Source: an uncultured Gemmatimonadales bacterium
GTDB lineage: Bacteria; Gemmatimonadota; Gemmatimonadetes; Gemmatimonadales; Gemmatimonadaceae
Assembly: GCA_963701965.1 (NCBI GenBank)
Contig: OY969695.1
Location: 160,001-224,000 of the forward strand
Reading direction: 5' to 3'
Length of the DNA: 64,000 nt
In this document: in pieces, positions 42,800 through 64,000 of the stretch
Layout: every line of letters begins with the position of its first letter
How positions within the stretch are numbered: the stretch's first letter is position 1
The notes under the pieces: model-generated
Databases searched by the model: none
The model's input: only the letters and a program-made list of their open reading frames with translations
What the model was told of the DNA's origin: nothing
Made by a program: the position numbers and the translations under genes

Positions 42800-42835
42800 C
42801 CGCTCCGACGTTGCGCCTGCGCACCGTCGGAGCGG
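42800..42835. repeat. Long inverted repeat (terminator or attC relic)
   Basis: CCGCTCCGACG...CGTCGGAGCGG 11-bp arms plus inner TGCGC/GCGCA; followed on the minus strand by GCTAGGC. Confidence 0.6.
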
Positions 42836-42849
42836 GACGCGGCGCAGTC

Positions 42850-43143
42850 CTACGCGCCGACGTGCCGTTCGCGCGTCGTGCCGAAGCGCGCCGCCGAGCG
42901 CGCGCGTGCGCGCTCGGCCTCGACCTCCCGGTCGCGCGGCTCCGCGGTCGTGACCAGCGAATCGATGAGCGCTCGCGCCGCGCTCGCGACCTGCTCGACG
43001 GCGGCGTCGAACGCCTCCTGATTGGCCTTCGACGGCACGCTGAAGCCGCTCAGCTTGCGAACGAACTGGAGCGACGCGTCACGAATCTCGAGCTCGGTCG
43101 CCGGCGGCTCGAAGTTGAAGAGGGTCTTGATGTTCCTGCACAT
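42850..43143 (-). CDS. DUF2277 family protein
   Basis: MCRNIKTLFNFEPPAT...ASLQFVRKLSG. Confidence 0.85.
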   Translation of the reverse strand: MCRNIKTLFNFEPPATELEIRDASLQFVRKLSGFSVPSKANQEAFDAAVEQVASAARALIDSLVTTAEPRDREVEAERARARSAARFGTTRERHVGA

Positions 43144-43158
43144 CGCGGTACTGCTCCC

Positions 43159-43530
43159 TCAATCGGTCGGTGAATGGAGCGCGACCCGGTTGCCCTCGCT
43201 GTCGAGGACGATCGCGCGATAGCCGTGCGGGCCGATCTGATGCATCGCCTGGACGATGCGGCCGCCGTTCGCGGCGACGGCGCGCACGGCGTCGCCGAGG
43301 CGCCCGTCGGTATTGAGATAGACGAGCGGACCGCGCTCGCAGGGCGCGTTGTCGTCGTCGGGCGTGTAGAGGCAGCCGCCGACGTCGTCGTGGCTGTGGG
43401 AAAAGACGCCGAAGGCGAAGCCCGGGCCGCCTTCGCGCGTCACCGGGCCGTCGAGCACCGCCGAATAGAACCTGATCGCGCGATCGAGGTCATGCACCGG
43501 AATGTCGACCCAGACAAAGCTGTGGCTCAT
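43159..43530 (-). CDS. VOC/glyoxalase family protein
   Basis: VWVDIPVHDLDRAIRFY; DSEGNRVALHS. Confidence 0.88.
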   Translation of the reverse strand: MSHSFVWVDIPVHDLDRAIRFYSAVLDGPVTREGGPGFAFGVFSHSHDDVGGCLYTPDDDNAPCERGPLVYLNTDGRLGDAVRAVAANGGRIVQAMHQIGPHGYRAIVLDSEGNRVALHSPTD

Positions 43531-43542
43531 GGCGAATCGTCC

Positions 43543-44197
43543 TCAGTGTTGGGCGAGGCAGGTGCCGCTGCCGTGCGGCGCGGCGCGAAACTCGGGCAGT
43601 GTCTCGGCGTGTGCCGACCACTGCGCCAAGGCCGGACAGCGCCCGGCCGGAACCCGCTCGGCGATCGTCTGCTGAATGAAATGCCAAGCGACGGCCGCGC
43701 TCACGCCGTCCTGGCCGATGGTCGCGCTGTCGCCCGCCAGCGGCGCGCGCGCAACCAGGTCGGCCTCGAGCGCGTCGCAGGCGGCGATCAGCTGGCCGCT
43801 GACGCGCTCGATCCAGGCGTCATGCCGCTTCTCGGCCGGGCGCATGTTCTCGTAGATGATCTGAACGCTCTTCTCGCACGCGGCGAGGGCGAGGCCGATC
43901 GTGCCGCAGGGCGCGTCGGCGCGGCGCCAGCTCGGCCGGCAGCAGCCGCCGTGTGCCGGTCGCAAGGACCTCCGCGTACTCGAGGATGAGGCTCGAGTCC
44001 ATCAGCACCGTGCCGTCGTCGCAGACCAGGGTCGGCGCCTTGACGATCGGATTGATCGCGGCGAACTGCTCGAAGGTGCGAAACACCGAGAGCGGCTCGT
44101 GCACGAAGCGCAGGCCGAGCAGCTGCAGCGAGACGGCGACTCGCCGCACGTACGGTGAATCGAGCATGCCGATCAGTCGCATCGCGCTCTCTGCCAT
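43543..44197 (-). CDS. Glutathione S-transferase (frameshift near 43905)
   Basis: MRLIGMLDSPYVRRV, NPIVKAPTL, DSSLILEY. Confidence 0.85.
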
Positions 44198-44222
44198 GGC
44201 GAGGAGGATAGCGAAGATGGTC

Positions 44223-44651
44223 TCAGGGCGCGCTCGCGCCGAGATGGACCGCCGCGATCAGCCAGAGGAACACGAGCGCGAAGTTGCTCAGCGTGAACGC
44301 CGCGAGGCGATGGAGGACATGGTTGTAGGTGAGGTGGATCGCGCTGTGGATGACGCGCAGGGCGACATAGGCCGAGGCGATCCCGATCGTCAGCGAAGAG
44401 GCGCCGGCGGTGACGTAGAGCAGCAGGCAGACGACATAGAAGAGGATCGGCAGCTCGAGCAGGTTCATGTAGTTGCGATTCGGGATGCTGACGTACCCTG
44501 GCACCGCGGCCGACTCGCCGAGCTTGAAATCGTTGGGACGGATCTCGCGCTTGCGCACCGCGCGGACGCGCGCCATCGGTATGAGCAGCAGCACCACCAG
44601 CGTCCAGAACGCCAGGGCGAACATCGGATAGAGGATTGCCGGATTGCGCAT
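44223..44651 (-). CDS. MAPEG family membrane protein
   Basis: NYMNLLELPILFY, YVALRVIHS. Confidence 0.8.
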   Translation of the reverse strand: MRNPAILYPMFALAFWTLVVLLLIPMARVRAVRKREIRPNDFKLGESAAVPGYVSIPNRNYMNLLELPILFYVVCLLLYVTAGASSLTIGIASAYVALRVIHSAIHLTYNHVLHRLAAFTLSNFALVFLWLIAAVHLGASAP

Positions 44652-44657
44652 CGCGGC

Positions 44658-45074
44658 TCAACGCAGCTTGGTCCGGGCGAGCCGCTTGGCGTTGGCGACC
44701 GCCTTGCGATGAACCGGCGCGAGCCCCTTGCCGAAGACGCCGAGCGCGGCGTTGTGGAGCTCGACCGCGAGGGCGCTGGCGGCGGCCTTGTTGCTGCGCA
44801 GCGAGGGCGCGGTCCAGAGCGAGCGCGTGAGGGAGAGCGACAGCGCCTGGTGCGAGCGCATCGCCTGCAGCGCCATCGCGTTCCACGATTCGCTGAAGGC
44901 GCTGTTCTTCTCGGCCACCATGCGTGCGAACTCCTTGCGGTCACGCTCGGAAAGCTTCGGCCCTGCCAGCGCGATCCGCGTCATCCGGTGGGCCACGACC
45001 TGCGGCACCGCGGTCGCGAGCTCGCGCGCCTGGATCGCCAATTGGCGCGCGAGCCGCGAACGACGCGGGCTCAT
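44658..45074 (-). CDS. PHA granule-associated phasin-like protein
   Basis: AVPQVVAHR, EFARMVAEK, PVHRKAVANAKRL. Confidence 0.7.
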   Translation of the reverse strand: MSPRRSRLARQLAIQARELATAVPQVVAHRMTRIALAGPKLSERDRKEFARMVAEKNSAFSESWNAMALQAMRSHQALSLSLTRSLWTAPSLRSNKAAASALAVELHNAALGVFGKGLAPVHRKAVANAKRLARTKLR

Positions 45075-45283
45075 GACGCTACGGCGGCGCAGGTCGCGCA
45101 GACGCACGAAAAGCCGCCATCGAGCGCCGTCGCCCGCGCCAGGGCGGCCGAATCGAGGAGCGCGCTGACGCACCAGCACGGCGCCGCATCGTCGCCACCG
45201 CCCGATGCCATCACGCATCCGTTGGCGCGTTGGCAGAGCGGGCAGACGCTGCCGCGGACGATCGGCTCGGCCAACGCGCTCAT
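45071..45283 (-). CDS. Cysteine-rich CWC family protein
   Basis: CPLCQRANGC...PCWC...SCVCATC. Confidence 0.8.
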   Translation of the reverse strand: MSALAEPIVRGSVCPLCQRANGCVMASGGGDDAAPCWCVSALLDSAALARATALDGGFSCVCATCAAVAS

Positions 45284-45302
45284 CGGTCGGCGCCGCTCCG
45301 GA

Positions 45303-45668
45303 CTAGGCCTTGGGCACACGCTGGAACTCTCCCCACAACCCGCGGCACTGCCGGTCGAGCGGGCTCGAAGCGGGCGGCGCCGACGCCTTGGCCGCGCTTT
45401 TGGCGACGCGCTGACGCTCGCTCTTGTAGGCGGCGCCGGCACGTGTCTCGGCCAGGCGGGCGGCCGACTTCGCATCGGGCCTGATGCGCCAGAGGCTCAG
45501 ATAGGCTTCGTCGCGGTGCCCGGCCATCTCCGGATAGCGCGCCTCGCATTCGACATAGCTGACGTCGTAGTGCGCCAGCGATTTCGGGTCGTACGGATGG
45601 CTCTGCGCCAGCACCGGCGCGGTGGCGAGCGTGAGGACGACGGCGAGGAGAACAGGAGGGATGCGCAT
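45303..45668 (-). CDS. Small secreted protein with two cysteines
   Basis: Signal peptide MRIPPVLLAVVLTLATAPVLA; VEC...RQC. Confidence 0.65.
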   Translation of the reverse strand: MRIPPVLLAVVLTLATAPVLAQSHPYDPKSLAHYDVSYVECEARYPEMAGHRDEAYLSLWRIRPDAKSAARLAETRAGAAYKSERQRVAKSAAKASAPPASSPLDRQCRGLWGEFQRVPKA

Positions 45669-45833
45669 CGAGTGGACCGTTCGAAGTAGGAGAGCGGCAA
45701 CGAGCATATGGCCCGCGCCGGCTCGCGACAAGCCCGGAGTCTAGGCGGCGGCGGAACGAATGCGCACGATGATCGTCGCCCGGCTTCGTCCACCGGCCTG
45801 CCGTCGCCGGCGCGATCGCAGCACATGCGTCGA

Positions 45834-46247
45834 TCAGCCGAATTCCTGGTGTTGCGGCAGCCCGTCGACGATCTCGAACCACGGCGCCTTGGAGCCGACG
45901 AAGATGTGCGCGGATGGCCGGAGCGAGGGCGAATCGACCAGCGTGCCGAGGGTGACGTGGACGTAAGCGCCATCGCGAACGAGCGAGTACAGGAGCGAGC
46001 CGCAGACGGCGCAACGTGCATCGTGGGAGTTAGCGCTGCCGAAGAGCCGCAGACGGTCGCGGCCGTTGGCGATTTCGAGTCGATCGCGCTCGATGCCGGC
46101 GAACGGCTTGAACGCCGAGCCAGTGGCGCGGCGGCAGTTCGAGCAATGGCAGTTCAAGGCATAGCGGAAGTGGTCGTCGACCGTGTACTCGACCGCACCG
46201 CAGAGGCAGCGGCCGGCGAGCCGTCGCGCGGCGGAATGCGTCGGCAT
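45834..46247 (-). CDS. GFA (CENP-V) family protein
   Basis: GRCLCG, CHCSNCRR, CAVCGS, HIFVGSKAPW. Confidence 0.88.
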   Translation of the reverse strand: MPTHSAARRLAGRCLCGAVEYTVDDHFRYALNCHCSNCRRATGSAFKPFAGIERDRLEIANGRDRLRLFGSANSHDARCAVCGSLLYSLVRDGAYVHVTLGTLVDSPSLRPSAHIFVGSKAPWFEIVDGLPQHQEFG

Positions 46248-46632
46248 CAGCGACCGGCATAGTGCGCCGCCGCCATGACGAACGGAAGCACCAGTTCGGG
46301 GATCAGATAGCCGAGCCAGACCGCCGCGGGCCGGGGCAGCCCACCTTGCTGATCGAGAGCAGTCGGCCGCATCCGGCGAGCAGCACGCCGAGCGCGAGCA
46401 GGTAGACCAGCGTGTCCTGCTGGCGCACTGTGAGCCCGGCCCACAGGCAGATGACTCCGGTCCCGAGATAGACGCCGGCCATGAAGCGGTGGACGTTGTC
46501 GAGACGCGGCGAGGTATCGGGCTGGCCGAGGATCATCTGTAGCGAGCCGCCGAAGATCGCGATCGCGGCTGCGAGGAAAAGGCAGGCCTGGACGACGTGC
46601 TGGCTGAGCGTGAGTGGAAGGTCGGCGCTCAT
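46247..46632 (-). CDS. DUF4345-like membrane protein (frameshifted)
   Basis: LDNVHRFMAGVY, GRLLSI, YLIPELVLP in a second frame. Confidence 0.7.
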
Positions 46633-47039
46633 TCAGCGCCTTCGAGGACCAGCTGGGTTTGCGTGACGACGGCGCAGAGCTTGCCGTTGTCGTTCCTGAC
46701 CGAGGTCTGCCAGACCATCGTCGTGCGGCCGCGGTGCAGGGCGATGCACTCGCCCGTGACCGTCGTGTCCAGGCGCGCCCCGGCGATGAACTTGGTGCTC
46801 GAATCGGTGGTCGCCGTGCGCTTTCCCGGCTTCAGGTTGAGCAGCGTTCCGACCGCGCCCAGGGTATCGGCGAACGCCATGTAGGCGCCGCCGTGAAGGA
46901 TGCCGCCGGCGGTGCACAGGTCGGCGCGGACCTTCATCTCGGCGACGACCCGGTCGGGGGCGAGCTCGACCAGGCGCACGCCCATCAGGCCGGGGAAGAG
47001 CGGAGCGAGCAAGGTCTGGAGGGAAGCGAGTTCTGGCAT
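46629..47039 (-). CDS. PaaI family thioesterase
   Basis: GILHGGAYMAFADTLG hotdog-fold motif. Confidence 0.88.
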   Translation of the reverse strand: MPELASLQTLLAPLFPGLMGVRLVELAPDRVVAEMKVRADLCTAGGILHGGAYMAFADTLGAVGTLLNLKPGKRTATTDSSTKFIAGARLDTTVTGECIALHRGRTTMVWQTSVRNDNGKLCAVVTQTQLVLEGAE

Positions 47040-47091
47040 CGGGGGCTCCTCGCGGCGGAAAGCGTCGGATCCGCAGGTCGGTTTTCGGCCG

Positions 47092-47304
47092 TTACCTGGA
47101 CTTGCCGCCGAACGCCAGCAACAGGCCGCCGGCGACGACGGCGCCGACGCCGAGCCAGACCGGAACGTTGACCGTCTTCGTCTCCTTGACCGATAGCTCG
47201 AGCGGGCCGAGCTTGACCGCGGTCTTGTCGTCGGTGTAGCTGAAGCCGCCGTAGGCGAGCGCGAGCACGCCGAGGACGATCAGGACGACGGCGGCGATTT
47301 TCAT
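47092..47304 (-). CDS. Small two-TM membrane protein
   Basis: MKIAAVVLIVLGVLALAYGGFSYT...KLGPLEL...PVWLG; AAGGAG RBS. Confidence 0.75.
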   Translation of the reverse strand: MKIAAVVLIVLGVLALAYGGFSYTDDKTAVKLGPLELSVKETKTVNVPVWLGVGAVVAGGLLLAFGGKSR

Positions 47305-47351
47305 GAGGCTCCTTGGCAGCGGTGGCGCGATTCTGCCGTTGCCGTCGATCG

Positions 47352-47852
47352 TCAGGGCGAGGGGTTCCCGGCAAGGAGCTCGACCTCGGCCTCGACCTCG
47401 ACCGGGATGTCGAACGGCAGCTCGTACAGGCCGACGGCGCTGCGCGAATGCGCGCCGACCGAAGGGCCGTACAGCTCGACGATCAGCTCCGAGAAGCCGT
47501 TGATCACGCTCGGCTGTCGGTTGAACCCTGCCGCCGAGTTGACCATGCCAAGGACGCGGCACCAGGCCGCGACGCGATCGAGGTCGCCGATGGCGCGCTT
47601 CAGGCTGCCGAGCATCGACAACGCCACCAGGCGCGCGGCGGCATGGCCCTGCTCGAGCGACAACTCGCGACCGACCTTGCCGAGCGGCTCGGCAACCGAG
47701 CCGTCGACGTTCTGCGGACCGTGGCCGGAGATGAACGCGCGCGAGCCGACGATCCTGACGAACTGGAACGGCAGGACGACGCCGGGCGGCGGCTTGAGGG
47801 GTGCCGGCAACATGAGACCGAGCGCGGCGAGTTTGGCTTCGACAGCGGCCAT
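47352..47852 (-). CDS. RidA/YjgF family protein
   Basis: ISGHGP, GKVG, LGMVNS, INGFSEL, HSRSAVG, PVEVE. Confidence 0.88.
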   Translation of the reverse strand: MAAVEAKLAALGLMLPAPLKPPPGVVLPFQFVRIVGSRAFISGHGPQNVDGSVAEPLGKVGRELSLEQGHAAARLVALSMLGSLKRAIGDLDRVAAWCRVLGMVNSAAGFNRQPSVINGFSELIVELYGPSVGAHSRSAVGLYELPFDIPVEVEAEVELLAGNPSP

Positions 47853-47854
47853 GG

Positions 47855-48250
47855 TCAGACCTCCTTGTTGGTGACGGCACGGGTCAACGTGCCCGCGCCC
47901 AGAGTGACGTGGAGCATACGGCTCGGTGCGTGGACGCGGGCGGTGTGCCAGACGCCGCGCGGCACGACGACCGCGCCGCGCCCGGCAATGGCAAGCACGC
48001 GAACCCCGTCTTCGTGCTCGAGCAGCAAATCGATCGAGCCCGACAGCAGGTAGACGAACTCGTCGCCGTTCGGGTGCATTTCCCAGGTCGGCCAATCGGC
48101 GACGAACTCGTATTCGGACACGACCCAGTCGCTGCCGACGCGGTCTCGCTCGGCCTGCGCCAGCGACCAGAACGCGTCGCCTCCGGGCAGCGTCTCGGCG
48201 ACGCCGTCGGCGCCGAGGCGAACGTAGCTGTCTTGCGGATTCAAGAGCAT
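47855..48250 (-). CDS. Cupin domain protein
   Basis: WEMHPNGDEFVYLLSG; VVPRGVWH. Confidence 0.85.
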   Translation of the reverse strand: MLLNPQDSYVRLGADGVAETLPGGDAFWSLAQAERDRVGSDWVVSEYEFVADWPTWEMHPNGDEFVYLLSGSIDLLLEHEDGVRVLAIAGRGAVVVPRGVWHTARVHAPSRMLHVTLGAGTLTRAVTNKEV

Positions 48251-48924
48251 GGCGTATCGCCGCCGATCGGCGCTTCGAGCAGGCAACCGAACTCGCGCGC
48301 GAAGTCGACCGAGACCCGCGCGTGCACCGCGCCCTGCTGGTCGAAGAAGCGCTGGCTGCCGGCGAGGGCGAAGACGCCTTCGTGCCAGATGTCAGGATGG
48401 ATGTAGAGGCCTTGGGCGCCGGCGAATCGAAAGCAGACGAAGCGCTCCGGCGTGACGTCGTCGCCGGGCAGCGCCAACGGCACGTAGAACGGCCGCTGAT
48501 CGAGCGGAAAGAACAGCTGGCCGCCATCGGGGTGGTAGTTGGCGTGCCACAGGATCACGCGCCGCGGCGGATCGGCGTGATCGGTGCGCGCGAGCTCCGG
48601 CGCTTCGCCGTAGCCGAGGATGTAGTGGCCGCCGACGGCTTCGTTGCGGCCGTAGAGGATGTCGCCCTGCCATTCGCTCACGAACACGCCCTCGGTCGTG
48701 CCGCCCTGGTCGCCGGTATCGGCGTCGACCGGACGGCGGCCGCGCGCCGGCCAGCGAACGATCTCGACCCGGCACGCCGCGGGATCGTCGACCAGGCGCC
48801 CATAGCCGAGCAGGCTCTCGGGCGAGGCGTCGACGACCGGCATGCGCACGCGCTTCAGGCCCGCGGGCAGGTCGGGGAACAGGTAGTCGATCGGCGCCGC
48901 CGCGCTGCCGCGATCGCCGATCAC
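48241..48924 (-). CDS. Ureidoglycolate lyase-like cupin
   Basis: NYHPDGGQLFFP, GLYIHPDIWH. Confidence 0.7.
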   Translation of the reverse strand: MIGDRGSAAAPIDYLFPDLPAGLKRVRMPVVDASPESLLGYGRLVDDPAACRVEIVRWPARGRRPVDADTGDQGGTTEGVFVSEWQGDILYGRNEAVGGHYILGYGEAPELARTDHADPPRRVILWHANYHPDGGQLFFPLDQRPFYVPLALPGDDVTPERFVCFRFAGAQGLYIHPDIWHEGVFALAGSQRFFDQQGAVHARVSVDFAREFGCLLEAPIGGDTPCS

Positions 48925-49373
48925 GATCCGACTCCGCGCGCCATCAGGCTGGCGCACAGCGCCATCGCGAGCAGCAGGATCAGCTCGAAGCGCAGCATGA
49001 CCACGATCCGACGATGCTCCGTGCCCGAAACGACCGGTGCCAGACCTTGCTTCGTCCGTGCGCCCCACTTGATGAAGCGGATTGTCGGGTAGATCGACAG
49101 CAGGCCGACGCCGATGAACAGCGTCAGCTTGGCGCGAAAGAACGGGTTGGACATGTAGAACGCCTGGCCCTTCTCGAAGTAGTAGACGCGCAGGAAGCCG
49201 ACGACAAGGACCACCATGGCGAAGACGCCGAACCACCGGTCGGCGAGCTGGATGCGCCGCGCCTCGGCGAGCGTCGGCGCGCGGCTCATCGTCTGCCACT
49301 CGAGGAAGACGGTGGCGACGATCGCGAAGACCGCCAGGAAATGCAGGAACGCGAAGACGGCGCTGATCGTCAT
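48921..49373 (-). CDS. DUF2214 family membrane protein
   Basis: FLHFLA, YFEKG, KLTLF, LSIYPT, ASLMARGVG. Confidence 0.8.
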   Translation of the reverse strand: MTISAVFAFLHFLAVFAIVATVFLEWQTMSRAPTLAEARRIQLADRWFGVFAMVVLVVGFLRVYYFEKGQAFYMSNPFFRAKLTLFIGVGLLSIYPTIRFIKWGARTKQGLAPVVSGTEHRRIVVMLRFELILLLAMALCASLMARGVGS

Positions 49374-49384
49374 GGCGCAGAACG

Positions 49385-49735
49385 CTAGAGGCGGATGCCG
49401 AAGCGAGGCAACAGCCACAGCATCATCGCGTACGCGGCAGCGGTGGCCGCGCACGAAAGCGCCAGGCTCGGCCAGAAGCCAATGGCTGCGCGCAGCAACG
49501 CCGGGAACAGCGTGAACAGGACCAGCGAAGGCAGGACCAGCCAAAAGATGTTTTGCGAGAGCGCCGCGACGCGTTCCGCGCTCGCCGACTCGGCGTGCAG
49601 CCAGACGAAGGCGAGCAGCGACGTCAGCGGCAGCGATGCCAGCGCCGCAGCCCACAGCGAGTTGCGCTTGGCGAGCTCGGTGACGGCGACGATGACCAGC
49701 GCCGAGACGAGAACCTTGATGACGTAGTGGGTCAC
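49385..49735 (-). CDS. DUF3147 family membrane protein
   Basis: IKVLVSA...ELAKR...LASLPLTSLL...FWLVLPSL. Confidence 0.8.
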   Translation of the reverse strand: MTHYVIKVLVSALVIVAVTELAKRNSLWAAALASLPLTSLLAFVWLHAESASAERVAALSQNIFWLVLPSLVLFTLFPALLRAAIGFWPSLALSCAATAAAYAMMLWLLPRFGIRL

Positions 49736-49755
49736 GGCGTTCGCATTCCTTCATC

Positions 49756-50068
49756 TCAGCGACAGCTTTCTTCGACCCACCGGCCATAAGGCTCGGACAC
49801 CCGCTCGAGAGGCACGGCGTCGATCGCCGGCAACTCGTACTCGTGCAGCTCGCGAATCGCGCTTTCGACCGCCTGGTAGCGCTCGTCGGTCGTCTTGAAG
49901 AGGATCCGGAACTCCGGATCGTTTGCGATCTTCCCCTGCCAGCGCGTAGAAACTTTCGATCGCCGAGATTTCCGCGCACGCCGCCAATCGGCGCTCGACC
50001 AGCGTCCTGGCGACTCTTCGCGCGGACTCCAGGGTGGCCACGGTCGTGGTGACGGCGAGGAGCTTCAT
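49756..50068 (-). CDS. cutA: Divalent-cation tolerance protein CutA (frameshifted)
   Basis: LVERRLAAC, ELHEYELPAI, YGRW. Confidence 0.85.
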
Positions 50069-50139: not shown

Positions 50140-50638
50140 TCACCGGCAACCGACGGCTTCGGCCACGCCCATCTCCCCGGCGATCAAGGCGAAGTCTGCG
50201 GCCGGGATGTTGGATGTAGCCGAAGCGGAACGCCGCACCCCAGTGCGTCTTGTTCGTGATGAACGACAGGCGCTCCACGAGCGGCTTGATGGCCGCCTCC
50301 ACCGCCTCGCCGAAGAAGCCGATGTCGATGCGGTACGGCTCGAAGTCGTCGGCCATCTGTACCTGGTAGATCGTGCCGGTGGTAACGATGCCGATGGCCG
50401 TGAAGCGCTGCAGCGGCTGACCGTCCGGGTACGACGTTCGCGGCGAGTACATCACCAGCCCGTCGCCGGCATGCATGCGCCGCAGTGGCGCACGCTTGCC
50501 GTGGCTGAGCTGGATGAAGCCACCTTCGACGCCGACACGAACATGCTCGCGCGAGACGACGCCGACCCAGAATTGGCGTCGCGCCGTCGCCACTTCAAGC
50601 GTGGCGCCAGTTGTCGCCTTCCTGCGGGAGGTGCTCAC
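50140..50638 (-). CDS. EVE domain protein (frameshift near 50210)
   Basis: WVGVVSREHV...HGKRAPLRRM...YSPR...FTAIG...WGAAFRFG. Confidence 0.8.
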
Positions 50639-50652
50639 CTGTCGCCCCGCGC

Positions 50653-51447: not shown

Positions 51448-51475
51448 GGTCGCGAAGCGGGCCCTCGCGCCCGGC

Positions 51476-52525: not shown

Positions 52526-52534
52526 GACGATAGC

Positions 52535-54470: not shown

Positions 54471-54555
54471 GACGAATCTCCTTGGCGTGATGGGTGATGA
54501 GAGCGGGCGATCCTCGTTACGCGCGCGCGAACTGCAATTCGCATGGGGACGGCGG

Positions 54556-55005: not shown

Positions 55006-55057
55006 GTACGGTCTCCTCGCGATGCACCAATGCTAGCGAAGCGCTCCGCCGTCTTCC

Positions 55058-55519: not shown

Positions 55520-55534
55520 GGGGAGGGTGCGGCG

Positions 55535-55921: not shown

Positions 55922-55949
55922 GCCTAAGCCTCCGCGTTGCCGACGTCGC

Positions 55950-56369: not shown

Positions 56370-56396
56370 GGGTGGCTGGGCCGTCCGGCGCAAGGG

Positions 56397-56876
56397 TCAG
56401 AACTCACGGCGCTGCCTCATGCGAAGTCCGTTCAGCAAGGTCACAAGCTCTTCGGGATTCATGCCGTAGGACTCCGGCAGCGCGCCCTCGGCGCCGGCCA
56501 GCCGCGTCGCCAGCCTACGCGTTGAGGCGTGGGTCTTGTATCCCTCGCTGTACCTGAGGCCGACCATCGTCGTGGTCCCCATGCTGATCGGCAAGAATTC
56601 CGCCAGGTCGTTCCACGAATGAAACGTCTTGCGGAACATGGAGCACATCGTGAGCCCCCGGTCTTCCAGGAGGAGATACGAGCTGCCCGGCGGGAGATTG
56701 ATGATCGCGACGACCGCACCAAGACCGAAAAAGACGATCGCCGAATAGCCGGCCCAGGGCGAGTCGTGCCGTATGAAGATTCCGCCTGCGACGAATGCCA
56801 CGCAGCCAAGGAGAAGTCCCAGCGACCTCGTGCGCGCACCCTGAAGGCGTCGCGGAAGAGGCGGGGTTGCTTGCAT
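56397..56876 (-). CDS. Two-TM membrane protein with a PH-like domain (STM3941-like)
   Basis: Two TMs, then SYLLLEDRGL...SWNDL...LPESYGM. Confidence 0.6.
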   Translation of the reverse strand: MQATPPLPRRLQGARTRSLGLLLGCVAFVAGGIFIRHDSPWAGYSAIVFFGLGAVVAIINLPPGSSYLLLEDRGLTMCSMFRKTFHSWNDLAEFLPISMGTTTMVGLRYSEGYKTHASTRRLATRLAGAEGALPESYGMNPEELVTLLNGLRMRQRREF

Positions 56877-56885
56877 GGGTGGATT

Positions 56886-56903
56886 CTGCGGTTCGACATG
56901 CGC
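56886..56903 (-). repeat. attC-like relic (3' half)
   Basis: GCGCATGTCGAACCG ending about 15 nt before the next ATG; the core 10-mer is identical to 61807-61816. Confidence 0.5.
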
Positions 56904-56923
56904 GTTGCCAAAAGGCGCGTGCC

Positions 56924-57160
56924 TTATTTGACCGAGCGCCACGGCGCGGCCAACTTCGGCCAACCGAGCCGGCGAGCAAGGAACGCCACGCGCAGCCATG
57001 CAGCACCGTAGACGATGGCGACCGAGGCGAGCGCAGCCATGACCCAGCGCGAGTTCGCCAGTGCGATGTACAGCGCAGTGCACCCGGCCGACAACCATAC
57101 GGCAGACAGGCCTGCCGCCAGGAGCCGCTCGAAGCGGGAGAGCTTGCCATTCCTGCGCAT
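56924..57160 (-). CDS. Small two-TM membrane protein
   Basis: 78-aa hydrophobic ORF in array orientation. Confidence 0.55.
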   Translation of the reverse strand: MRRNGKLSRFERLLAAGLSAVWLSAGCTALYIALANSRWVMAALASVAIVYGAAWLRVAFLARRLGWPKLAAPWRSVK

Positions 57161-57199: not shown

Positions 57200-57234
57200 C
57201 CCGGACCGGTTGAAGGGGGCTGGAGGGGTTAGAC
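57200..57234 (-). repeat. attC-like relic (5' half)
   Basis: GTCTAAC (RYYYAAC) containing the TAA stop of the upstream gene, followed by CCCTCC. Confidence 0.55.
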
Positions 57235-57705
57235 CTCACCGGGTTTGGGAACGACGCGCAGCGTGGCATTGAGGATCTCCCGGTCCTCCGGATCGGGAAG
57301 CGCCGCGATCAGCCGCTCGGCCTCGCGATAGCTGCTTGCATGGGCTTCCCGCTCGCCGGCTGCCGCCGCGACGCTGGCCTTGACAGCGAAGGCGCAAGCT
57401 CGTTCCCAAGGCTCGCAATCCTGTCCGAGGAAAAGCGGCTCGGACTGCGCCAGGTAGTGCTTGGCTGGATTCGGCAACTTCAGCAACGCGTAGACGTGCG
57501 CTACGAGTTGCGCCGCACGGGCCCGGTTTCCCGCGGTGCCGACGAGCTTCCAGAAGTACATCGACGCATGAGCCGCCTGAAGCATTTCCTCGTCCTCCTG
57601 CGGAGAGCGTTGCGACTCCGACAGTCGCCAGGCTCGATTGTTCGCCTGCGCGGCCAGTCGCCGCTGCCAGCGCGCGACTTCCTCGGGTGATGGGGAATCG
57701 GTCAT
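57229..57705 (-). CDS. Hypothetical helical protein
   Basis: 158-aa ORF, ANNRAW...MLQAAHASMYFW; flanked by R'-like and R''-like sites. Confidence 0.7.
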   Translation of the reverse strand: MTDSPSPEEVARWQRRLAAQANNRAWRLSESQRSPQEDEEMLQAAHASMYFWKLVGTAGNRARAAQLVAHVYALLKLPNPAKHYLAQSEPLFLGQDCEPWERACAFAVKASVAAAAGEREAHASSYREAERLIAALPDPEDREILNATLRVVPKPGEV

Positions 57706-57710
57706 AGGTG

Positions 57711-57747
57711 TTCCAACGGTGAGAAATCCGAGCCTGATGGATTAGAC
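57711..57747 (-). repeat. Collapsed attC-like site
   Basis: GTCTAAT (contains a stop)...CGTTGGAA, then ATG 5 nt later; only 37 bp long. Confidence 0.5.
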
Positions 57748-58304
57748 CTTGAGGTGCTTCGTGATGGCCGCATCGAGTTGCGCCACGGTGGGTTCAATCG
57801 CGAGCCCTCCGTTACCCGCGAGCTCTGGGCAAGCTTGTCTTGCATGAACGCCGACTCGGGCGACAAGCCCTCGGTGATCTGCGAGAGTTGTGCCTCGCGC
57901 GACATCGAACGTGCCGTCAGGCTCCTCGCGGCCCGGGCCCCGATGCGAACCTCTGCATAGAGGATGCGAGCCTGCACCGGGCCGCAGCCGCCGGCCCTGC
58001 AGGCATGGAAAGACATCACGTCGGCGGCCCTTCTCGGCACGCCCGACGTATTGCACGCGACGTCTTGAACTACCGACGCGCGCCGATAGTCGTCGGTATA
58101 GGGGCTTCCAACGCTTGACCAAAGCGGCTGGGGATGGCTCGCGCCGTTGACCACGGAGCCCTTTGGCGCGGGCCATCGGGTACCCACAGGATCGGTAAGG
58201 CTGAAGTCGCACAACAGTTCCATGTCGCGATCCGGGGCCACTGCGTCGACCAGCCACTCGGTCTTTGGGTTTCCGGAGAAAGAACCGTGATTCGCCATGG
58301 GCAT
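57742..58304 (-). pseudogene. DUF1353-like protein, degenerate
   Basis: W.APKGSVVNGASHP..LW..VGSPY..YRRASVVQD; the expected IP and HD appear as HP and QD; frameshift near 57815. Confidence 0.6.
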
Positions 58305-58321
58305 CTCCTCGACCTCACGTT

Positions 58322-58966
58322 GGCGCTTGATCACGCGGAAGGGATGCTCGACCCGCGCTCGCACCTGGCCTTGAGCGTCTCGCGCTTGTGGATTGCACGC
58401 ACTGGCGAGCGCCCCTCGGGCAGCTTGGCGCTGTCACTCGGCTTGCGCGGCGATGTGCCACCGCAGCTCCTCGCGCTCGGCCACGCTTATCTGCGCCGCT
58501 GTAGCCAGCATCGGCAAGCACCACTTCTTCCTTGCCGTGCAGCAGGTCATCGACTTGCTCGATGTCGGCTTCGTTGGCTGCCGTGGTGGTCACTGTGTGC
58601 ACCAGGCCCGAGTCGGCATCGACTCCGATGTGCGCCTTCATGCCGAAGTGCCACTGGTTGCCCTTCTTGGTCTGGTGCATCTCGGGGTCGCGCTCGCCGT
58701 CTGCGTTCTTGGTCGAGCTCGGCGCGGCGATGATGGTGGCGTCGACGATGCTGCCGCGCTTGAGCAGCAGGCCCTTGCGCGTCAGATGCGCGTTGACCCG
58801 CCTTGAGGATCTCCGGGGCCAGCTCGTTGGTTTCGAGCAGGTGACGGAAGTTCAGGATCGTCGTCTCGTCCGGGATCGGCTCGCCCAGCTTCAATCGCGC
58901 GAACGCGCGCAGCGAAGCAATCTCGTAGAGCGCTTCTTCCATCGACGGATCGCTCAGTGCGACCAG
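58322..58966 (-). mobile_element. IS5-family transposase remnant, truncated at both ends and frameshifted
   Basis: [68 protein letters not shown]. Confidence 0.9.
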
Positions 58967-59356
58967 CTAACGCTCGAACAGCATGCTCGTCCCCGTGGCC
59001 AGCACACCGATGCCGACGACGGCAGACACGGCGAGGAACAACGGGTCTTCCGACTGAAGATACAGGCCGACGAAGCCGACCAGCATCGCGGCGGGCATGA
59101 AGAAGCTCAGCGGATACAGAGCAGCGATGCGCAAGCGCACGATCTGGCCCACCAACGTTCCCATCGCCACGCTGAGCATGCCTACCCAACGAGGCATGAC
59201 GTTACCGTAGTCGGTGTTCGAGAGCATTGCCGCAAGCGCGACGCGCGGTGAAATCAGAAGCGCCAAGCCGCTGAGGACGAGGTAGCCCGCCACGTACCAA
59301 ATGCAAAGGCGGACTCGCCTTGCGGCTGATGCTTGATCCCGAGTTTCAAGCAGCAT
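58967..59356 (-). CDS. Four-TM membrane protein
   Basis: 129-aa ORF with four hydrophobic segments. Confidence 0.6.
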   Translation of the reverse strand: MLLETRDQASAARRVRLCIWYVAGYLVLSGLALLISPRVALAAMLSNTDYGNVMPRWVGMLSVAMGTLVGQIVRLRIAALYPLSFFMPAAMLVGFVGLYLQSEDPLFLAVSAVVGIGVLATGTSMLFER

Positions 59357-59371
59357 GCGAGCGCGCCCGCT

Positions 59372-60052
59372 CTATTCGGTTCGATCGCCCAGTTCCGGGA
59401 TCGGTCGGCCCTGGCTGCGGAGATAGCCCACCATCGCCATCACGACCGTCCTGAGCGCCGGCCGACCGATCATTCGCTCTCGCCAGGCGAGCAGATTCGA
59501 ATGGTCCGCAGTCATCGGTACCGTGTGGCGCGCCGCGAAGAACTGCGCCATGTAGAACGCGATGTCGGCGTAGCTGAATTGGTCCGCCAGGTATTCATGA
59601 CCTAGGAGCCGCTGGTCGATCCAAAGGTAGTGCGCCTCGATGGCTGCTCTTGCCGTTTTCCACTCGGGCGCGTCAACCGGATCGGGATTTCCGCGCAGGC
59701 CCATCAGTCGAATAACAGGAGGAAAGAAGATTTCGTCGGAATAAAGCTCCAGTTGCCGTGCCTCTGCTCGCGCGGCGACGGAGCGCGGCCACAGTGGCGG
59801 CTCCGGCCAACGATCTTCGAGGTATTCGAAGATCTGCGTCGAGTCGAAAACCTGGACGTCGCCATCAACGAGGACGGGCACTTGATGTTTGGGATTGATG
59901 CGCAGCACGTCAGGATGCTTCGGTGTGTAGCCGCGTTCGAAGTCGAACGGCACCATCACCAGATCGAACTCGATTCCCTTCTCGCGCGCGGCGATCTCGA
60001 CCTTCGCACCGAACATGCTCAGCGGACCGGAGTAGATCTGCAAGCGATCCAT
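59372..60052 (-). CDS. Glutathione S-transferase
   Basis: YSGPLSMFGAKV, INPKHQVPVL, DSTQIFEYLE, FSYADIA. Confidence 0.88.
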   Translation of the reverse strand: MDRLQIYSGPLSMFGAKVEIAAREKGIEFDLVMVPFDFERGYTPKHPDVLRINPKHQVPVLVDGDVQVFDSTQIFEYLEDRWPEPPLWPRSVAARAEARQLELYSDEIFFPPVIRLMGLRGNPDPVDAPEWKTARAAIEAHYLWIDQRLLGHEYLADQFSYADIAFYMAQFFAARHTVPMTADHSNLLAWRERMIGRPALRTVVMAMVGYLRSQGRPIPELGDRTE

Positions 60053-60098
60053 GGGAATTTCGCGAAGGGAGCCATTCACCGCTGCTGTCGCGCGGGCG

Positions 60099-60524
60099 TC
60101 ACTTCGGTGCGGCCGGAACCAGCCCGTAGCGGGCCATGACAGACACCAGCGCCGCCTTGTCCGGAGGGCCTCCGCCGTTGACCACGGCGGCGACGTCTTT
60201 GAAGTATTGCGCTCCAACATCGGGAGACATCACGATCAGGGCGCGAGCGGTCTCGCCGAATGGATTCGAGAAGGCATGGACGACGCCCTTCGGGGTGCTC
60301 ATGGTTTGGCCCGCCGTCAGGTCGCGGGTCTCGCCTCCGACCGAATAGCGAAGGGCGCCCGCGAGAACGTAAACGCATTCTTCGTTGTTCGAGTGGCTAT
60401 GTGGCGGAGGGACGTTCGAGCTAGGGGGAACCGTCAGCTCGAACATCCCGAGACTCTTCGTATCGGAGCCATCGACGATGTAGTTGATGCCGAGCTGGCC
60501 TACCGTGATTTCGTTGCTGTCCAT
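60099..60524 (-). CDS. Cupin domain protein
   Basis: PPPHSHSNNEECVYVLAG; PKGVVHAFSN. Confidence 0.85.
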   Translation of the reverse strand: MDSNEITVGQLGINYIVDGSDTKSLGMFELTVPPSSNVPPPHSHSNNEECVYVLAGALRYSVGGETRDLTAGQTMSTPKGVVHAFSNPFGETARALIVMSPDVGAQYFKDVAAVVNGGGPPDKAALVSVMARYGLVPAAPK

Positions 60525-61036
60525 GCGATTTGTTGGTCAGTTGAGGTACTTGTTGTGCGCGCGTGTCGCGCCGCTAGGAAGTCAACACATTCTTGGTTCT
60601 GCCAGAGCTTAGCAAGTTGCATCGGTTCCTGAGGTTGTTCCGCGAAGACAGCGACTCCTTCCGGAAACACCACCCACGGCTGGGCGCTTCGCGTCCAGAT
60701 ATGCGCGACGGGAGGGAACTGCGACGGATGGTCCAAGGTGCCGGGCTGAAGAACACGAATGGCCTGATTGAGCCGAGGCTCGCCCCAAAGGCGCGTGCCA
60801 CAGACTGCGCACAGCTGACCCCGCTTGACTCGGCCGTCCGCCAGCGTGGCGGAATAGGACGATGTGCTTCCATGCGTGACGACCAGGGCTTCAGCGGGAA
60901 CGATGAGCGAGAGGGCGAACGCGCTGCCCGTACGGCGCTGGCAGTCCGTGCAGTGACAGACGTAGCTGGTGAGCGGTTCCGCGCCCAGCCGGTAGCGAAC
61001 CGAACCGCACAAGCACCCGCCATCACAGGACTCCAT
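60500..61036 (-). CDS. GFA family protein (C-terminus runs into the next gene)
   Basis: GGCLCG, CHCTDCQRRTGSAF, CAVCGT, HIWTRSAQPW. Confidence 0.85.
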   Translation of the reverse strand: MESCDGGCLCGSVRYRLGAEPLTSYVCHCTDCQRRTGSAFALSLIVPAEALVVTHGSTSSYSATLADGRVKRGQLCAVCGTRLWGEPRLNQAIRVLQPGTLDHPSQFPPVAHIWTRSAQPWVVFPEGVAVFAEQPQEPMQLAKLWQNQECVDFLAARHARTTSTSTDQQIAWTATKSR

Positions 61037-61040
61037 GGGA

Positions 61041-61481
61041 TCACTCCCGCTGCGCCGGCCCAAGCAGATTGGCATCGCGGGCGAGCGACCAGCGGCCGCC
61101 CTGGCGACGAAAGACGGTCAACGTGTGGCCGCTGCGGCGCGTTGGCGTGCCGCCATCCGGTGGCGTCGCCAGCACCGTGAGCTTGCTCCACATGAACGCC
61201 CAGTCGCCTGAAACTTCGACTTCCTGAATATCGCTTGTGGCGTCGAACCTCGGCGTGCCGCCGCTTGCCTGAGAACGCAGCGCCGCGGCGAACTCGTCCT
61301 TGCGCATGGCGGCCCTGCCGGGGACGAGGAAAACGACGTCATCCGTCACGAGACTCAGGACGGCTTCGACATCGCCGGATCGGCTTGCCGCCACCCATGT
61401 GGACACCAACTTGCGAATCTGTTTCTCGTCGTCCTTCATTTGTCGCTCCATGTCTGCACGAGCCCGCAAGGCATTCCTCAT
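61041..61481 (-). CDS. SgcJ/EcaC-like NTF2-fold protein
   Basis: DDVVFLVPG, IQEVEVSGDWAF, W.LARDANLL. Confidence 0.8.
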   Translation of the reverse strand: MRNALRARADMERQMKDDEKQIRKLVSTWVAASRSGDVEAVLSLVTDDVVFLVPGRAAMRKDEFAAALRSQASGGTPRFDATSDIQEVEVSGDWAFMWSKLTVLATPPDGGTPTRRSGHTLTVFRRQGGRWSLARDANLLGPAQRE

Positions 61482-61789
61482 TCGGCATGCGAAGGGTCGT
61501 AGGGCAGACCGTCCACGCTGACGAACCGGGCGGAACTGAATTCCCTTCGAAGCGCAATGAGCCGTTGATAGTCAGAACCGTCGTAGAAATCATCAAGGGT
61601 TTGCCTGGACGGAAACTCCAGGATGCTGAGCCTCCGCGGCGACCAGTCGCCCTCATGGGTCTTGGGGACGCCGCCTCGCACAAGGTACTTCGCACCCGCA
61701 GCAGCGAGGAGTGGTCTCAACTGCACAGAGAAGTCTTTCCACCTCTCCGTGTCGCGAATCTCCACCTCAAAAATGACGTACGCGGGCAT
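61478..61789 (-). CDS. DUF1330 family protein
   Basis: MPAYVI, GAKYLVRGG, EGDW, ILEFPS, YQRL. Confidence 0.85.
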   Translation of the reverse strand: MPAYVIFEVEIRDTERWKDFSVQLRPLLAAAGAKYLVRGGVPKTHEGDWSPRRLSILEFPSRQTLDDFYDGSDYQRLIALRREFSSARFVSVDGLPYDPSHAE

Positions 61790-61800
61790 AGCGTCGCTCC

Positions 61801-61850
61801 GGATGCGTTCGACATGGAGTGGCCGCGAGCGGGCCGGAAGGGGGTCAGGC
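61801..61850 (-). repeat. attC-like relic with both ends recognisable
   Basis: GCCTGAC-CCCCTTCC...GGCCACTC-CATGTCGAACG, 12-18 nt before the DUF1330 ATG. Confidence 0.6.
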
Positions 61851-61883
61851 GTCACCGCTGGCTGGCGGCACTGGCTTCAAGGC

Positions 61884-62453
61884 TCAGCTCTCGTTGTGAG
61901 TAACGTTGATGCGCCGACGTGTTCGTGCGCCAACGTCGTAGATGTTGAAGTCGCTCATCGTGCGTCCGTAGAGGTGCAGGCTGACTGCCCGAGGCCGTTC
62001 CGACGGAACCCCGGTGACGTGAATGTGATCGGGGTTTGGAACGAAGCTCGTGACTGCGCCATGTCGCAGCAGCACGGTACCGCCGCGTGCAAGGTCGATA
62101 TCCGCGTCAGCGCCTCGGTCCGGCGAGAGTCGTACGTAGCTGCGCTCTTCCAGAACTCCTTCGATCACGCCGACCACGCCCCAACTTCCGTGATCGTGAA
62201 CAGGCGTCCATTGACCGGGAAGCCAGACGATCGAATACAGCGACAGGCTTTCGTCCGCAGCGTCGTAGACGAGGTTGCGCGTGTAGCTCTGAGGGTCGCT
62301 CCGGTAGTGTTGCGGCTTGAGAAAGGTACCGGCCTGTTCGATCAGATCGAGCATCAGTGGTGCGAGAGCGAGTACGCAGTCCGCGGGGTCGACCTGGGCG
62401 TGGCTTCGCGCGGCCGCTTGGGAAATGAAGCGCTCAAGAGCCGCGGAGATCAT
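61884..62453 (-). CDS. Cysteine dioxygenase family (thiol dioxygenase-like cupin)
   Basis: YTRNL, WLPGQWTPVHDHGSWG, DHIH, SLHLYG. Confidence 0.85.
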   Translation of the reverse strand: MISAALERFISQAAARSHAQVDPADCVLALAPLMLDLIEQAGTFLKPQHYRSDPQSYTRNLVYDAADESLSLYSIVWLPGQWTPVHDHGSWGVVGVIEGVLEERSYVRLSPDRGADADIDLARGGTVLLRHGAVTSFVPNPDHIHVTGVPSERPRAVSLHLYGRTMSDFNIYDVGARTRRRINVTHNES

Positions 62454-62460
62454 GGGCACG

Positions 62461-62507
62461 ATTGTGCTCGCAGACTCACGCGACGCGCGACGTGTGAGCA
62501 GTTAGGC
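62461..62507 (-). repeat. attC-like relic with hairpin and a -10-like CACAAT
   Basis: GCCTAAC, then a CTCAC...GTGAG hairpin, then CACAAT 7 nt before ATG 62453. Confidence 0.5.
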
Positions 62508-62525
62508 ATCAATGCGCCGCACGGC

Positions 62526-63012
62526 CTAGGTACGGACTTCCGCCTCGCACTCGATGATGACGGGTGCGTTGAGCGCCAACTCCGCGACGCCGACAACGGC
62601 ACGAGGACATAGGGCGATCTCCTCACCGTAGAGGGCGATGATCAAGTCTGTAAAGCCGTCGATGACTTGTGGCTGGGCGTGAAACCCCGGGGCCGAGTTC
62701 ACCATGCCGAAGACACGCACCCAACTGCCCACGCGGTCGAGATCCCCAGTTCGCGCTTTAGGTCAGCCAACACGGCAAGCGCCGTATTGCGCGCGGCAGC
62801 GTAGCCCTCCTCGATGGTCAGATCGGAGCCCACCTCGCCGGGCCTTCCAGCAAGGAGCCATCGGCCGCGCGTGGTCCGTGCCCCGCGATGACGGCGCGCG
62901 TGCCCAACAGGCGCACCTGCCGCCACTTGATGCGAAAACCCGGCGGAACCCTCATTTCGCCCGGAAGGACCAGCCTCATTTCGGACAACTTGGCTTCAAT
63001 TTGCACGATCAC
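62526..63012 (-). CDS. RidA/YjgF family protein (two frameshifts)
   Basis: IAGHGP, GEVGSDLT, FGMVNSAPGF, IDGFTDL, RAVVG. Confidence 0.8.
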
Positions 63013-63059
63013 CCCTTGATGACGCGAAGAGAGTCACGTGGAAGGCTGGAAGCAACCGG

Positions 63060-63195
63060 AGGGTAGGGTGTGCAGGAGGGACTGCGGCCCGGGCCGATCG
63101 AAGAGACAAACGGGTACTTCATCATGCGACTACGGGACCCTGACCAAACCCTGGTCGTGTTCGCGAGCGCCAAGAGGTCGTAGCCGTTCACACGC
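63060..63195 (-). pseudogene. Possible C-terminal fragment of an MBL-fold hydrolase
   Basis: ERLRPLGAREHDQGLVRVP*SHDE resembles the ERLR...V.CSHD tail of MBL-fold proteins. Confidence 0.3.
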
Positions 63196-63199
63196 ACCG

Positions 63200-63236
63200 G
63201 CCCCCGGGATTCGACGTTCGAGGGAGTGGTTCGGGC
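63200..63236 (-). repeat. attC-like relic with central deletion
   Basis: GCCCGAAC-CACTCCCTCGAAC-GTCGAAT directly after a stop codon. Confidence 0.4.
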
Positions 63237-63737
63237 TCACGGTTGCTTGCGGCTGCAATCGAAGGATCGGTCATCGCTGTAGAGGCGACACCACAGGCCA
63301 ATGATCTTGCTTTCTCGCTCGGGCGATGCGTCCGCAAGAAGTTTGAGCACCTCCGCTTTGGCTTGAATGATGTCAGGCCCGAACGCGGGAAGGTCGGTAG
63401 GGAACCGTCCGGAAAAATCGTCAGGCAACTGCTCTGGGAACAGCGCCTGCAGGGCGGCCGCGGACGCCCTGGCCTGGCCGACTGATTGCGCCGAAAGCAC
63501 GATTTCAGCGGCCTTCAGCTGGAACTGCGCGCGAGCTTGAAAGTTCTGACTTAGAACACCCGCGATCAGCGTGGCACCCGCGGCCGCCGCCGTGACGGCT
63601 ATGGAGATGGCCGTGTATTTCGCCTTCTTGGCCTCCAGCCTTTGCTTGACTCTCTCAAGCCGCGCCAGGCGCAACTGCAGCGCCAGCTTCTGACGTTCGA
63701 TCCGAAGTTTTTCGCGCTCAACGGACAATTGCAGCAT
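63237..63737 (-). CDS. Hypothetical protein: N-terminal coiled coil plus one TM
   Basis: GGAGGT RBS; EREKLRIERQKL heptads, then hydrophobic AISIAVTAAAAGATLIAGVL. Confidence 0.65.
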   Translation of the reverse strand: MLQLSVEREKLRIERQKLALQLRLARLERVKQRLEAKKAKYTAISIAVTAAAAGATLIAGVLSQNFQARAQFQLKAAEIVLSAQSVGQARASAAALQALFPEQLPDDFSGRFPTDLPAFGPDIIQAKAEVLKLLADASPERESKIIGLWCRLYSDDRSFDCSRKQP

Positions 63738-63754
63738 GACTACCTCCACGCAAG

Positions 63755-63830
63755 CACCGTGCTCCGCCGAGCGGCGGCCGCAAGCAAGCGAAGCTTGCTC
63801 GAGGACGTCCGCTCGACGGAAGGACTAGGG
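63755..63830 (-). repeat. Best-preserved attC-like hairpin
   Basis: CCCTAGT-CCTTCCGTCGAGCGGACGTCC-TCG-AGCAAGC-TTC-GCTTGCT-TGC-GGCCGCCGCTCGGCGGA; begins at the upstream gene's stop codon. Confidence 0.7.
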
Positions 63831-64000
63831 GACACGGAAGAACCGACGCAGCACAATAAGCATGCCGGCGAAGAGCGTCAGCAAGAACACCGCCAGGACG
63901 GCGATGAAGGGAGCTTGCTCCAGCCGCGGCGGATGCCCGATGTTGGCATGCACGACGAACCAGTGCGTGAAGCAGAGCACGCCGAGCGTTGCATAGGCCG
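63825..64000 (-). CDS. Membrane protein, C-terminal part (starts beyond the window)
   Basis: ...AYATLGVLCFTHWFVV...FIAVLAVFLLTLFAGMLIVLRRFFRVP*. Confidence 0.6.
   Translation of the reverse strand, partial: AYATLGVLCFTHWFVVHANIGHPPRLEQAPFIAVLAVFLLTLFAGMLIVLRRFFRVP

Follow-up and report, generated by a model that had tools for sequence, protein, structure and literature searches.

Sedentary chromosomal integrons, of which those of Vibrio and Xanthomonas are examples, are the described systems closest to the locus analyzed here. In the part of the published account drawn on here (PMC8618304), such an element occupies a fixed chromosomal locus and carries a long array with a homogeneous attC family, in which the cassettes, mostly small genes whose functions are general or unknown, run opposite to the integrase gene intI. 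A newly inserted cassette takes the first position, at attI, and cassette domestication has been considered possible since a folded attC site is easily deleted by replication slippage (statements taken from part of bioRxiv 10.1101/2022.09.11.507474). Arrays with very degenerate attC sites have been proposed as an intermediate step to definitive gene stabilization (Cury et al. 2016, PMC4889954, likewise drawn on in part). The window studied here is a stretch of 64,000 nucleotides (nt), positions 160001-224000 of contig C1 in the assembly that we call G000; positions beyond 64000 are G000 positions minus 160000. An initial annotation had read its last 21 kb, next to lolD, as the attI-distal tail of a chromosomal integron with decayed attC sites. 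Intact attC sites and an intI remnant to the right of the window support this reading, and the locus likewise has a fixed chromosomal position, a long array, a homogeneous attC family and genes that are mostly small, have general or unknown functions and are oriented opposite to intI. Unlike the described systems, and as a qualification of that reading, half of the G000 array is without recognizable attC sites, intI is truncated and attI was not found; the sites are mostly gone, and a cassette origin is shown for 10 of 43 genes. It is very likely that a chromosomal integron array reaching from lolD to an intI-dnaE2 junction has its distal half here, and that most of the 43 genes are former cassettes fixed by attC deletion.

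The array totals 42 kb, with the window genes as its distal half. Between the window and intI lies a ~78-nt repeat family with RYYYAAC and GTTRRRY ends. Twenty-one attC sites share a consensus hairpin of 22 pairs, 7 of them with compensatory changes; intact 78-nt sites and a truncated intI beside dnaE2 are found 2-24 kb right of the window. A profile built solely from 40 attC sites of relatives matched 20 times in the 328-kb segment that includes the window, always on the cassette strand and between 63769 and 84498. Ten of these matches were full length and only one fell inside the window, so that attC-based detection would end at ~63.7 kb, in line with the suspicion that attC-based tools may miss the tail. 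From intI toward lolD the sites pass from full to partial to absent. No window gene (0/43) has a complete attC site and one has a near-complete site, making these genes former cassettes at most. That single site, at 63753..63830 on the minus strand, has lost its R' end and scores 40.8 bits over model positions 3-62 (fold z -3.6); the initial annotation had noticed a motif there and under-called it, since the motif belongs to a near-complete attC hairpin.

Shorter traces persist to the left of this site. Eight motif positions from the initial annotation were checked and hold the motifs claimed (GTCTAAC at 57234, GCCTGAC at 61850, CCCTAGT at 63830, GCCTAAC at 62507, GTCTAAT at 57747, TTCTGAC at 56402 rather than 56400, and CATGTCGAAC at 56891-56900 and 61807-61816, 15 and 18 nt before ATGs). 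The first of its two motifs is the left end of attC, and CATGTCGAAC is part of the right end; of the 8 exact copies of CATGTCGAAC in the 328-kb segment, 7 are array copies on the cassette strand, and the window has 2 of these. Three remnants, all on the minus strand, illustrate the forms taken: an internally deleted attC of ~45 nt with both ends kept and no significant hairpin (61806..61850; fold z +1.2), a 13-nt left-end (R''-L'') remnant that carries the stop codon of the 57229-57705 gene (57222..57234; left-end score 18.9, against a control maximum of 8.9), and a 10-nt right-end (L'-R') remnant recognized by motif counts and profile (56891..56900). For window genes below 63.7 kb, the left-end score after the stop codon exceeded the 95th percentile of 189 controls in 7 of 42 cases (Fisher p 0.019), and genes with left-end remnants above controls numbered 0/17 at 42.8-50 kb, 3/14 at 50-57 kb, 5/12 at 57-64 kb and 14/27 beyond 64 kb. 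Right-end remnants are enriched beyond 63.75 kb, and two exact 10-mers stand out inside the window. The claim that spacer motifs are enriched therefore holds for the left-end profile and CATGTCGAAC and fails for the bare heptamer in register with the stop codon (6/43 versus 18/189 controls, p 0.27) and for right-end motifs before start codons over the whole window (p 0.70 and 0.27 with two profiles). Because of the latter result, CTTAGGC-ATG and CGTTGGAA, proposed as R'-like remnants, are indistinguishable from chance. An Rfam scan of the window gave no match, and a direct-repeat search in 42-64 kb returned no attC family, only GC-rich chance repeats.

Several properties change along the array. 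The attC score correlates with position over the G000 array (rho 0.45, p 1e-4). From lolD to intI, the G+C content at third codon positions (GC3) falls through 0.87, 0.83, 0.74, 0.72 and 0.66 (rho -0.82, n=70; core mean 0.92), and the median spacer grows through 15, 28, 48 and 67 nt (rho 0.47). Distal spacers are shorter than an attC site; any former sites there must therefore have been deleted, and the loss of attC sites in this array is mostly deletion, beyond mere mutation. The distal 20 kb is matched in 48 of 49 genomes of the host genus, defined below, versus 34 of 49 for a 14-kb stretch right of the window; we did not use this as a gradient because 6 candidates were scored per genome and fragmented assemblies lose attC-rich DNA.

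The host of the array is a Caldimonas-like bacterium. The G000 contig appears to be chimeric, a ~328-kb Burkholderiales segment (C1 position 1 to ~328000, window included) being misjoined to the genome of another lineage, which we take to be Gemmatimonadota. The segment has a tetranucleotide profile unlike that of the remaining contig, which carries second copies, 35-53% identical to those of the segment, of valS, trpS, purD, purN, rsfS and rlmH, and likewise of prfB, polA, dxs, ftsK, rarA and recJ. LolE of the segment is 91% identical to that of a Caldimonas metagenome-assembled genome (L037). The genomes listed as G000 relatives match G000 at 2.25-2.28 Mb, not at the window; belonging to the other lineage of the chimeric contig, they were dropped as comparators, as was an apparent 5.5-kb lolD-dnaE2 interval in them that was produced by paralogues. 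We took as true relatives of the array the genus of the L037 genome (G041), with 49 genomes; tallies for this genus include one unpublished genome, G052. Some 328 kb of foreign chromosome in a reference assembly would misassign the integron to the wrong lineage. IntI above the cut-off also occurs in 21 of 41 main-lineage relatives (the G006-G040 set, G012 counted in), unrelated to the window array; apart from these tallies, nothing stated here depends on G052 or G012.

The same locus recurs in congeners. IntI above the TIGR02249 cut-off was found in 19 of the 49 genomes, and full-length intI stands beside dnaE2 in G042, G046, G077 and G088. The chromosomal position is fixed: lolD and intI-dnaE2 share one contig in G000, G046, G051 and G088, with the array between them in the three congeners as well, and lolD and dnaE2 do so in G069. 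An attC-free tail of 5-36 kb adjoins lolD in 9/9 congeners, with 10/11 to 62/62 of its genes co-oriented, and GC3 rises toward lolD in the same nine (rho 0.55-0.86), which were chosen for long contigs and are kin, not independent trials. Among 80 Burkholderiales lolE loci, some of which end soon past lolD, array genes lie behind lolD only in the closest, L037. At the genus level, full-length intI at an orthologous position, attC ends with an imperfect hairpin, co-oriented cassettes with single open reading frames (ORFs) opposite intI, and a position common to relatives together identify the locus, by its sequence, as a sedentary chromosomal integron; G000 alone is not a complete integron and resembles a CALIN (a cluster of attC sites without an integron-integrase).

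Relative to G000, gene order is kept in a subgroup of congeners that carry a DUF3943 gene, which retain much of the series from DUF2277, VOC, GST and MAPEG onward, and shuffled in the others, where a partly shared gene set is arranged differently (Kendall tau -0.8 to 1.0). This pattern fits shuffling first and freezing later. The initial annotation had named gene order conserved across related genera, as in ordinary operons, as a finding that would speak against it; over the last ~5 kb there is partial synteny inside one subgroup of the genus, and the same genes are shuffled in other congeners.

To the right of the window, positions 64888-85068 carry another 28 genes, among which sit two elements of IS110 type and one of IS3 type (Pfam). 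The first array site is an 86-nt attC of a different sequence family at 85085-85170 (G000 245085-245170), a stretch that was considered as attI, given up and re-read as attC. It is followed by the remnant of an IS1595-type element and by a reverse transcriptase element of group II intron type (~85460-87924; Pfam), the presumptive ends of the latter being placed by known motifs. A TIGR02249 search gave an N-terminal intI match on the plus strand at G000 248005, 24 kb past the window and opposite to the cassettes. This remnant consists of the 5' 93 codons of intI (87948-88229, plus strand), lies ~3 kb from the first attC and runs straight into dnaE2; the G000 assembly has no full-length intI. 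The contig that comes nearest the intI-dnaE2 join ends 6 nt short of it and leaves it unbridged. An attI conserved in G042, G046, G051, G077 and G088 is absent, within 2 mismatches, at the expected place in G000. Of what had been expected to the right of the window, an intI remnant and intact attC sites are present and attI was not found. With its intI cut short and no attI found, the integron seems to have no activity in cis in the G000 assembly. With 20 profile matches, where at least two attC sites define a CALIN, and without a complete intI, the G000 array is likely to be called one. Unlike the CALIN of Cury et al. 2016, as far as the part of that paper used here describes them, its decay is polar within one array and is also seen beside intact intI in congeners, and the array extends ~21 kb past its last detectable attC.

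The state of intI in G000 raises the question of whether decay simply followed its loss, the entire array having frozen and begun to rot. We regard this as highly unlikely. The truncated intI and missing attI of G000 agree with it, as do the split intI of G051 and the 3' piece left in G069, yet attC sites beside the dead intI are still intact. It is largely refuted by G046 and G088, where full-length intI coexists with attC-free tails of 18-19 kb, and erosion therefore needs no integrase loss. The distal block, moreover, is common to several species and therefore likely older than the intI deletion.

In all seven relatives in which both genes were mapped (L052:2-2883, L119, L127, L131, L135, L136 and G406), intI lies directly upstream of dnaE2, which encodes an error-prone polymerase, and in the same direction. 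A LexA-like box precedes intI in congeners, and it is possible that the two genes are co-regulated by the SOS response. A LexA-like box at G000 245983-245998, which may belong to intI or to the IS1595-type element, was left unused; a contig of a close strain continues differently after it and has no intron. Our literature search found no paper on an integron-dnaE2 link or on an integron in this genus. Class 1 and class 3 mobile integrons are a further point of comparison: IntI of G088 is 63.7% identical to IntI3 and 64.6% identical to an Aquabacterium plasmid integrase, the highest value among the best 5000 plasmid records, 4976 of which fall below 60%. This IntI is distinct from those of the mobile integrons, the locus is chromosomal, and it belongs to neither class.

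We next consider homologues that are still cassettes. The pool, 1.45 Mb with 714 attC hits, was made up of loci from congeners and metagenomes and of other arrays of the family, and a cassette-form homologue was defined by at least 45% identity and an attC site following the gene. Nine of the 43 window genes have such homologues, as do 5 of the 28 proximal genes and none of the 103 small control genes, 34 of which had any pool hit. DUF2277 is a tenth: of its 19 matches in 301 genomes of the order, one, with 64% identity, is an intact cassette (L380) and belongs to an array with four attC repeats; attC follows none of its 36 pool hits. The check for attC beside close homologues, suggested in the initial annotation, is thus positive for 10/43 genes (45-86% identity, one with a partial attC). 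In the 43159..50068 block these are homologues of the VOC (68%), MAPEG (50%), 47092 (76%) and cupin (60%) genes; at 50140..57160, PEMT (62% and 55%) and cupin (45%); and at 57229..64000, the 57229 gene (86%), DUF1330 (81% and 59%) and the 63825 gene (57%, partial attC). The last bases of the 57229 gene are identical to those of its 86% homologue; from there the homologue runs into a full attC and the window copy breaks off after 13 nt.

A number of observations weigh against a cassette origin for the tail or against its gradual erosion. For 30 of the 43 window genes the pool contains no cassette-form homologue, and for 3 more the only ones are 24-36% identical. A 2OG oxygenase query from outside the array gave a 27% match with attC after it. 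For the 44658 gene, none of 17 homologues in 301 genomes of the order has attC following. Homologues of the ureidoglycolate-lyase-like, DUF2214, RidA, AHSA1 and GST genes occur in ordinary mixed-strand neighborhoods at 11 congener loci, which were picked for lying away from the array. In the window alone, the trend of attC score with position is weak (rho 0.30, p 0.058). Finally, G406, a family member outside the 49-genome set, has the same intI-dnaE2-2OG head (C1 ~5039000-5194000, L311-L319) before a 154-kb array whose 258 attC hits are intact to the far end and whose GC content is flat at 0.56-0.58. Erosion is therefore no inevitable result of distance; we infer that the G406 array is a recent expansion.

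No attC trace is detectable in any of the 17 genes below 50 kb. Only the part right of ~50 kb might be eroded array, the last 7 kb being an ordinary accessory cluster beside lolD whose genes were never cassettes in this lineage and against which the integron grew. In keeping with this are the lack of traces, the presence of DUF2277 in 42 of 49 genus genomes, the order conserved in one subgroup and the ordinary contexts of several of these genes in congeners. It is nonetheless improbable, as 5 of the 17 genes have intact-cassette homologues at 50-76% identity, these genes are differently ordered in other congeners, the GC3 and spacer gradients continue through the region without a step, and, within the limits of the 80 lolE loci noted above, array genes stand behind lolD only in L037.

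Sequencing quality was also weighed. In this assembly lolE, lolD and recJ are frameshifted as well as array genes, for which reason we did not take the array-gene frameshifts as pseudogenization. These errors and the joining of two lineages in one contig could be invoked to explain the erosion as an assembly artifact. Such an explanation is barely credible: the lineage join lies ~100 kb right of the window, the gradient recurs in 9/9 separately assembled congeners, and indel errors neither raise GC3 nor remove 78-nt sites in a polar fashion. A look through sequencing runs listed no RNA data set that contains the region, and the best shares were 0.21-0.28.

Returning to the reading of an array eroded by attC deletion, a sequence of events can be proposed. 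New cassettes would enter at the intI end and push older ones away, so that distance from that end would track cassette age. The attC hairpin would then be lost, likely by slippage-type deletion, as suggested by the published statement on folded sites, and a gene without flanking attC should be out of reach of excision by IntI. The genes shift toward the codon composition of the host and are conserved as proteins, and the tail may be expressed in an operon-like manner. The ratio of nonsynonymous to synonymous substitution (dN/dS) of window genes with a congener homologue of at least 55% identity, 0.06-0.47, indicates purifying selection and comes from simple counting under strong GC bias. The oldest block is common in order to one genus subgroup, likely by vertical descent. 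We lean somewhat toward seeing the lolD-dnaE2 integron as a conveyor belt to permanent genes, with entry, attC deletion, tight operon-like packing, host codon usage and vertical inheritance as its stages, position as its clock, at least one near-core gene (DUF2277, 42/49) among its products, and 5-36 kb of ex-cassettes per genome missed by attC tools. The published idea of domestication by loss of folded attC sites agrees with the half-sites and the short spacers, and it might account for single homologues found at other places in congener chromosomes; that work concerns single cassettes inserted at attG sites outside arrays, and here the genes lie at the far end of an array. The erosion of the tail also implies that, in this genus, the size of integron arrays and the number of integron-derived genes are often put much too low, in G000 by about half. 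We found no published account of a positional erosion gradient or of the lolD-dnaE2 locus in a search that covered few subscription journals and no supplements. The locus offers ten genomes with a common far border, ordered stages, matched intact-cassette homologues and an uneroded contrast in G406, and the rate and mechanism of attC loss become testable there.

The stop codons of 43 window genes fall in 42.8-64 kb, where an IS5-type remnant also lies; the count is close to the ~45 short co-oriented genes first reported. All are on the minus strand, with a median of 142 amino acids, and a codon-model gene caller placed no plus-strand gene in this interval; the gene families named earlier are correct by Pfam. 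They belong to a 48-gene same-strand run, the next longest run in the 328-kb segment being 18. On the left, the 3' part of lolE and lolD (40030..41255, plus strand; Pfam FtsX and ABC_tran), the latter frameshifted in the assembly, form a fixed border that recurs in congeners. Between lolD and the array lies the DUF3943 gene (41284..42780, minus), which is found in one congener subgroup; attC follows none of its 10 homologues. DUF2277 (42850..43143, minus), near-core in the genus and without attC here, is the most distal array gene.

It is followed by an attC-free block of 16 minus-strand genes (43159..50068; Pfam) with no left-end remnant above controls, a median spacer of 15 nt and four gene overlaps: VOC, GST, MAPEG, hypothetical, CWC, hypothetical, GFA and DUF4345, then thioesterase, small membrane protein, RidA, cupin, ureidoglycolate-lyase-like, DUF2214, hypothetical and CutA. 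The next 14 genes (50140..57160, minus; Pfam and left-end profile), with sparse attC remnants, encode EVE, AAA_28, GNAT, cupins, isochorismatase, AHSA1/SRPBCC, PEMT, SnoaL, DUF3995 and hypotheticals. Remnants are more frequent among the last 12 (57229..64000, minus; same evidence), which encode a hypothetical, DUF1353, GST, cupin, GFA, SnoaL, DUF1330, cysteine dioxygenase, RidA and hypotheticals; only the 3' part of the rightmost gene is inside, its start being 310 nt past the window edge. A fragmented IS5-type transposase remnant lies within the array at 58315..58960 (minus; Pfam DDE_Tnp_1 and DUF772). The ureidoglycolate-lyase-like gene occurs in at least 4 distinct ordinary neighborhoods in congeners and inside the array in others (L331-L334, L341, L342); either it was inserted several times outside the array, or the array captured it.

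In the proximal half of the array, an IS3-family element splits one attC, at L008:19900, and the attC sites at L008:10506 and L008:16668 are cut at an identical position by the same 104-nt end sequence, with an IS110-family transposase after the cut at L008:16668. We take these 104-nt-end insertions to resemble attC-targeting IS1111 elements. A single proximal cupin ORF (L008:11918-12325, plus strand), between intact attC sites, is inverted relative to the array. An intact cassette with its own 68-nt attC at L009:2302-2538 (G000 242302-242538, minus strand) encodes a type II dihydrofolate reductase with 94.9% identity to DfrB10, and a 90% identical relative of this dfrB-type gene sits in the G088 array. 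Burkholderiales have been named as original dfrB hosts in a study whose focus, in the part used here, is on copies without integron markers (PMC11662351). At the lolD border, several relatives (L059, L064, L065, L088, L144, L146, L148 and L160) have two lolE copies near each other, and in some other Burkholderiales (L068, L073, L082, L115) the recJ-lolE interval is several kb longer or contains array-like GST or GNAT genes.

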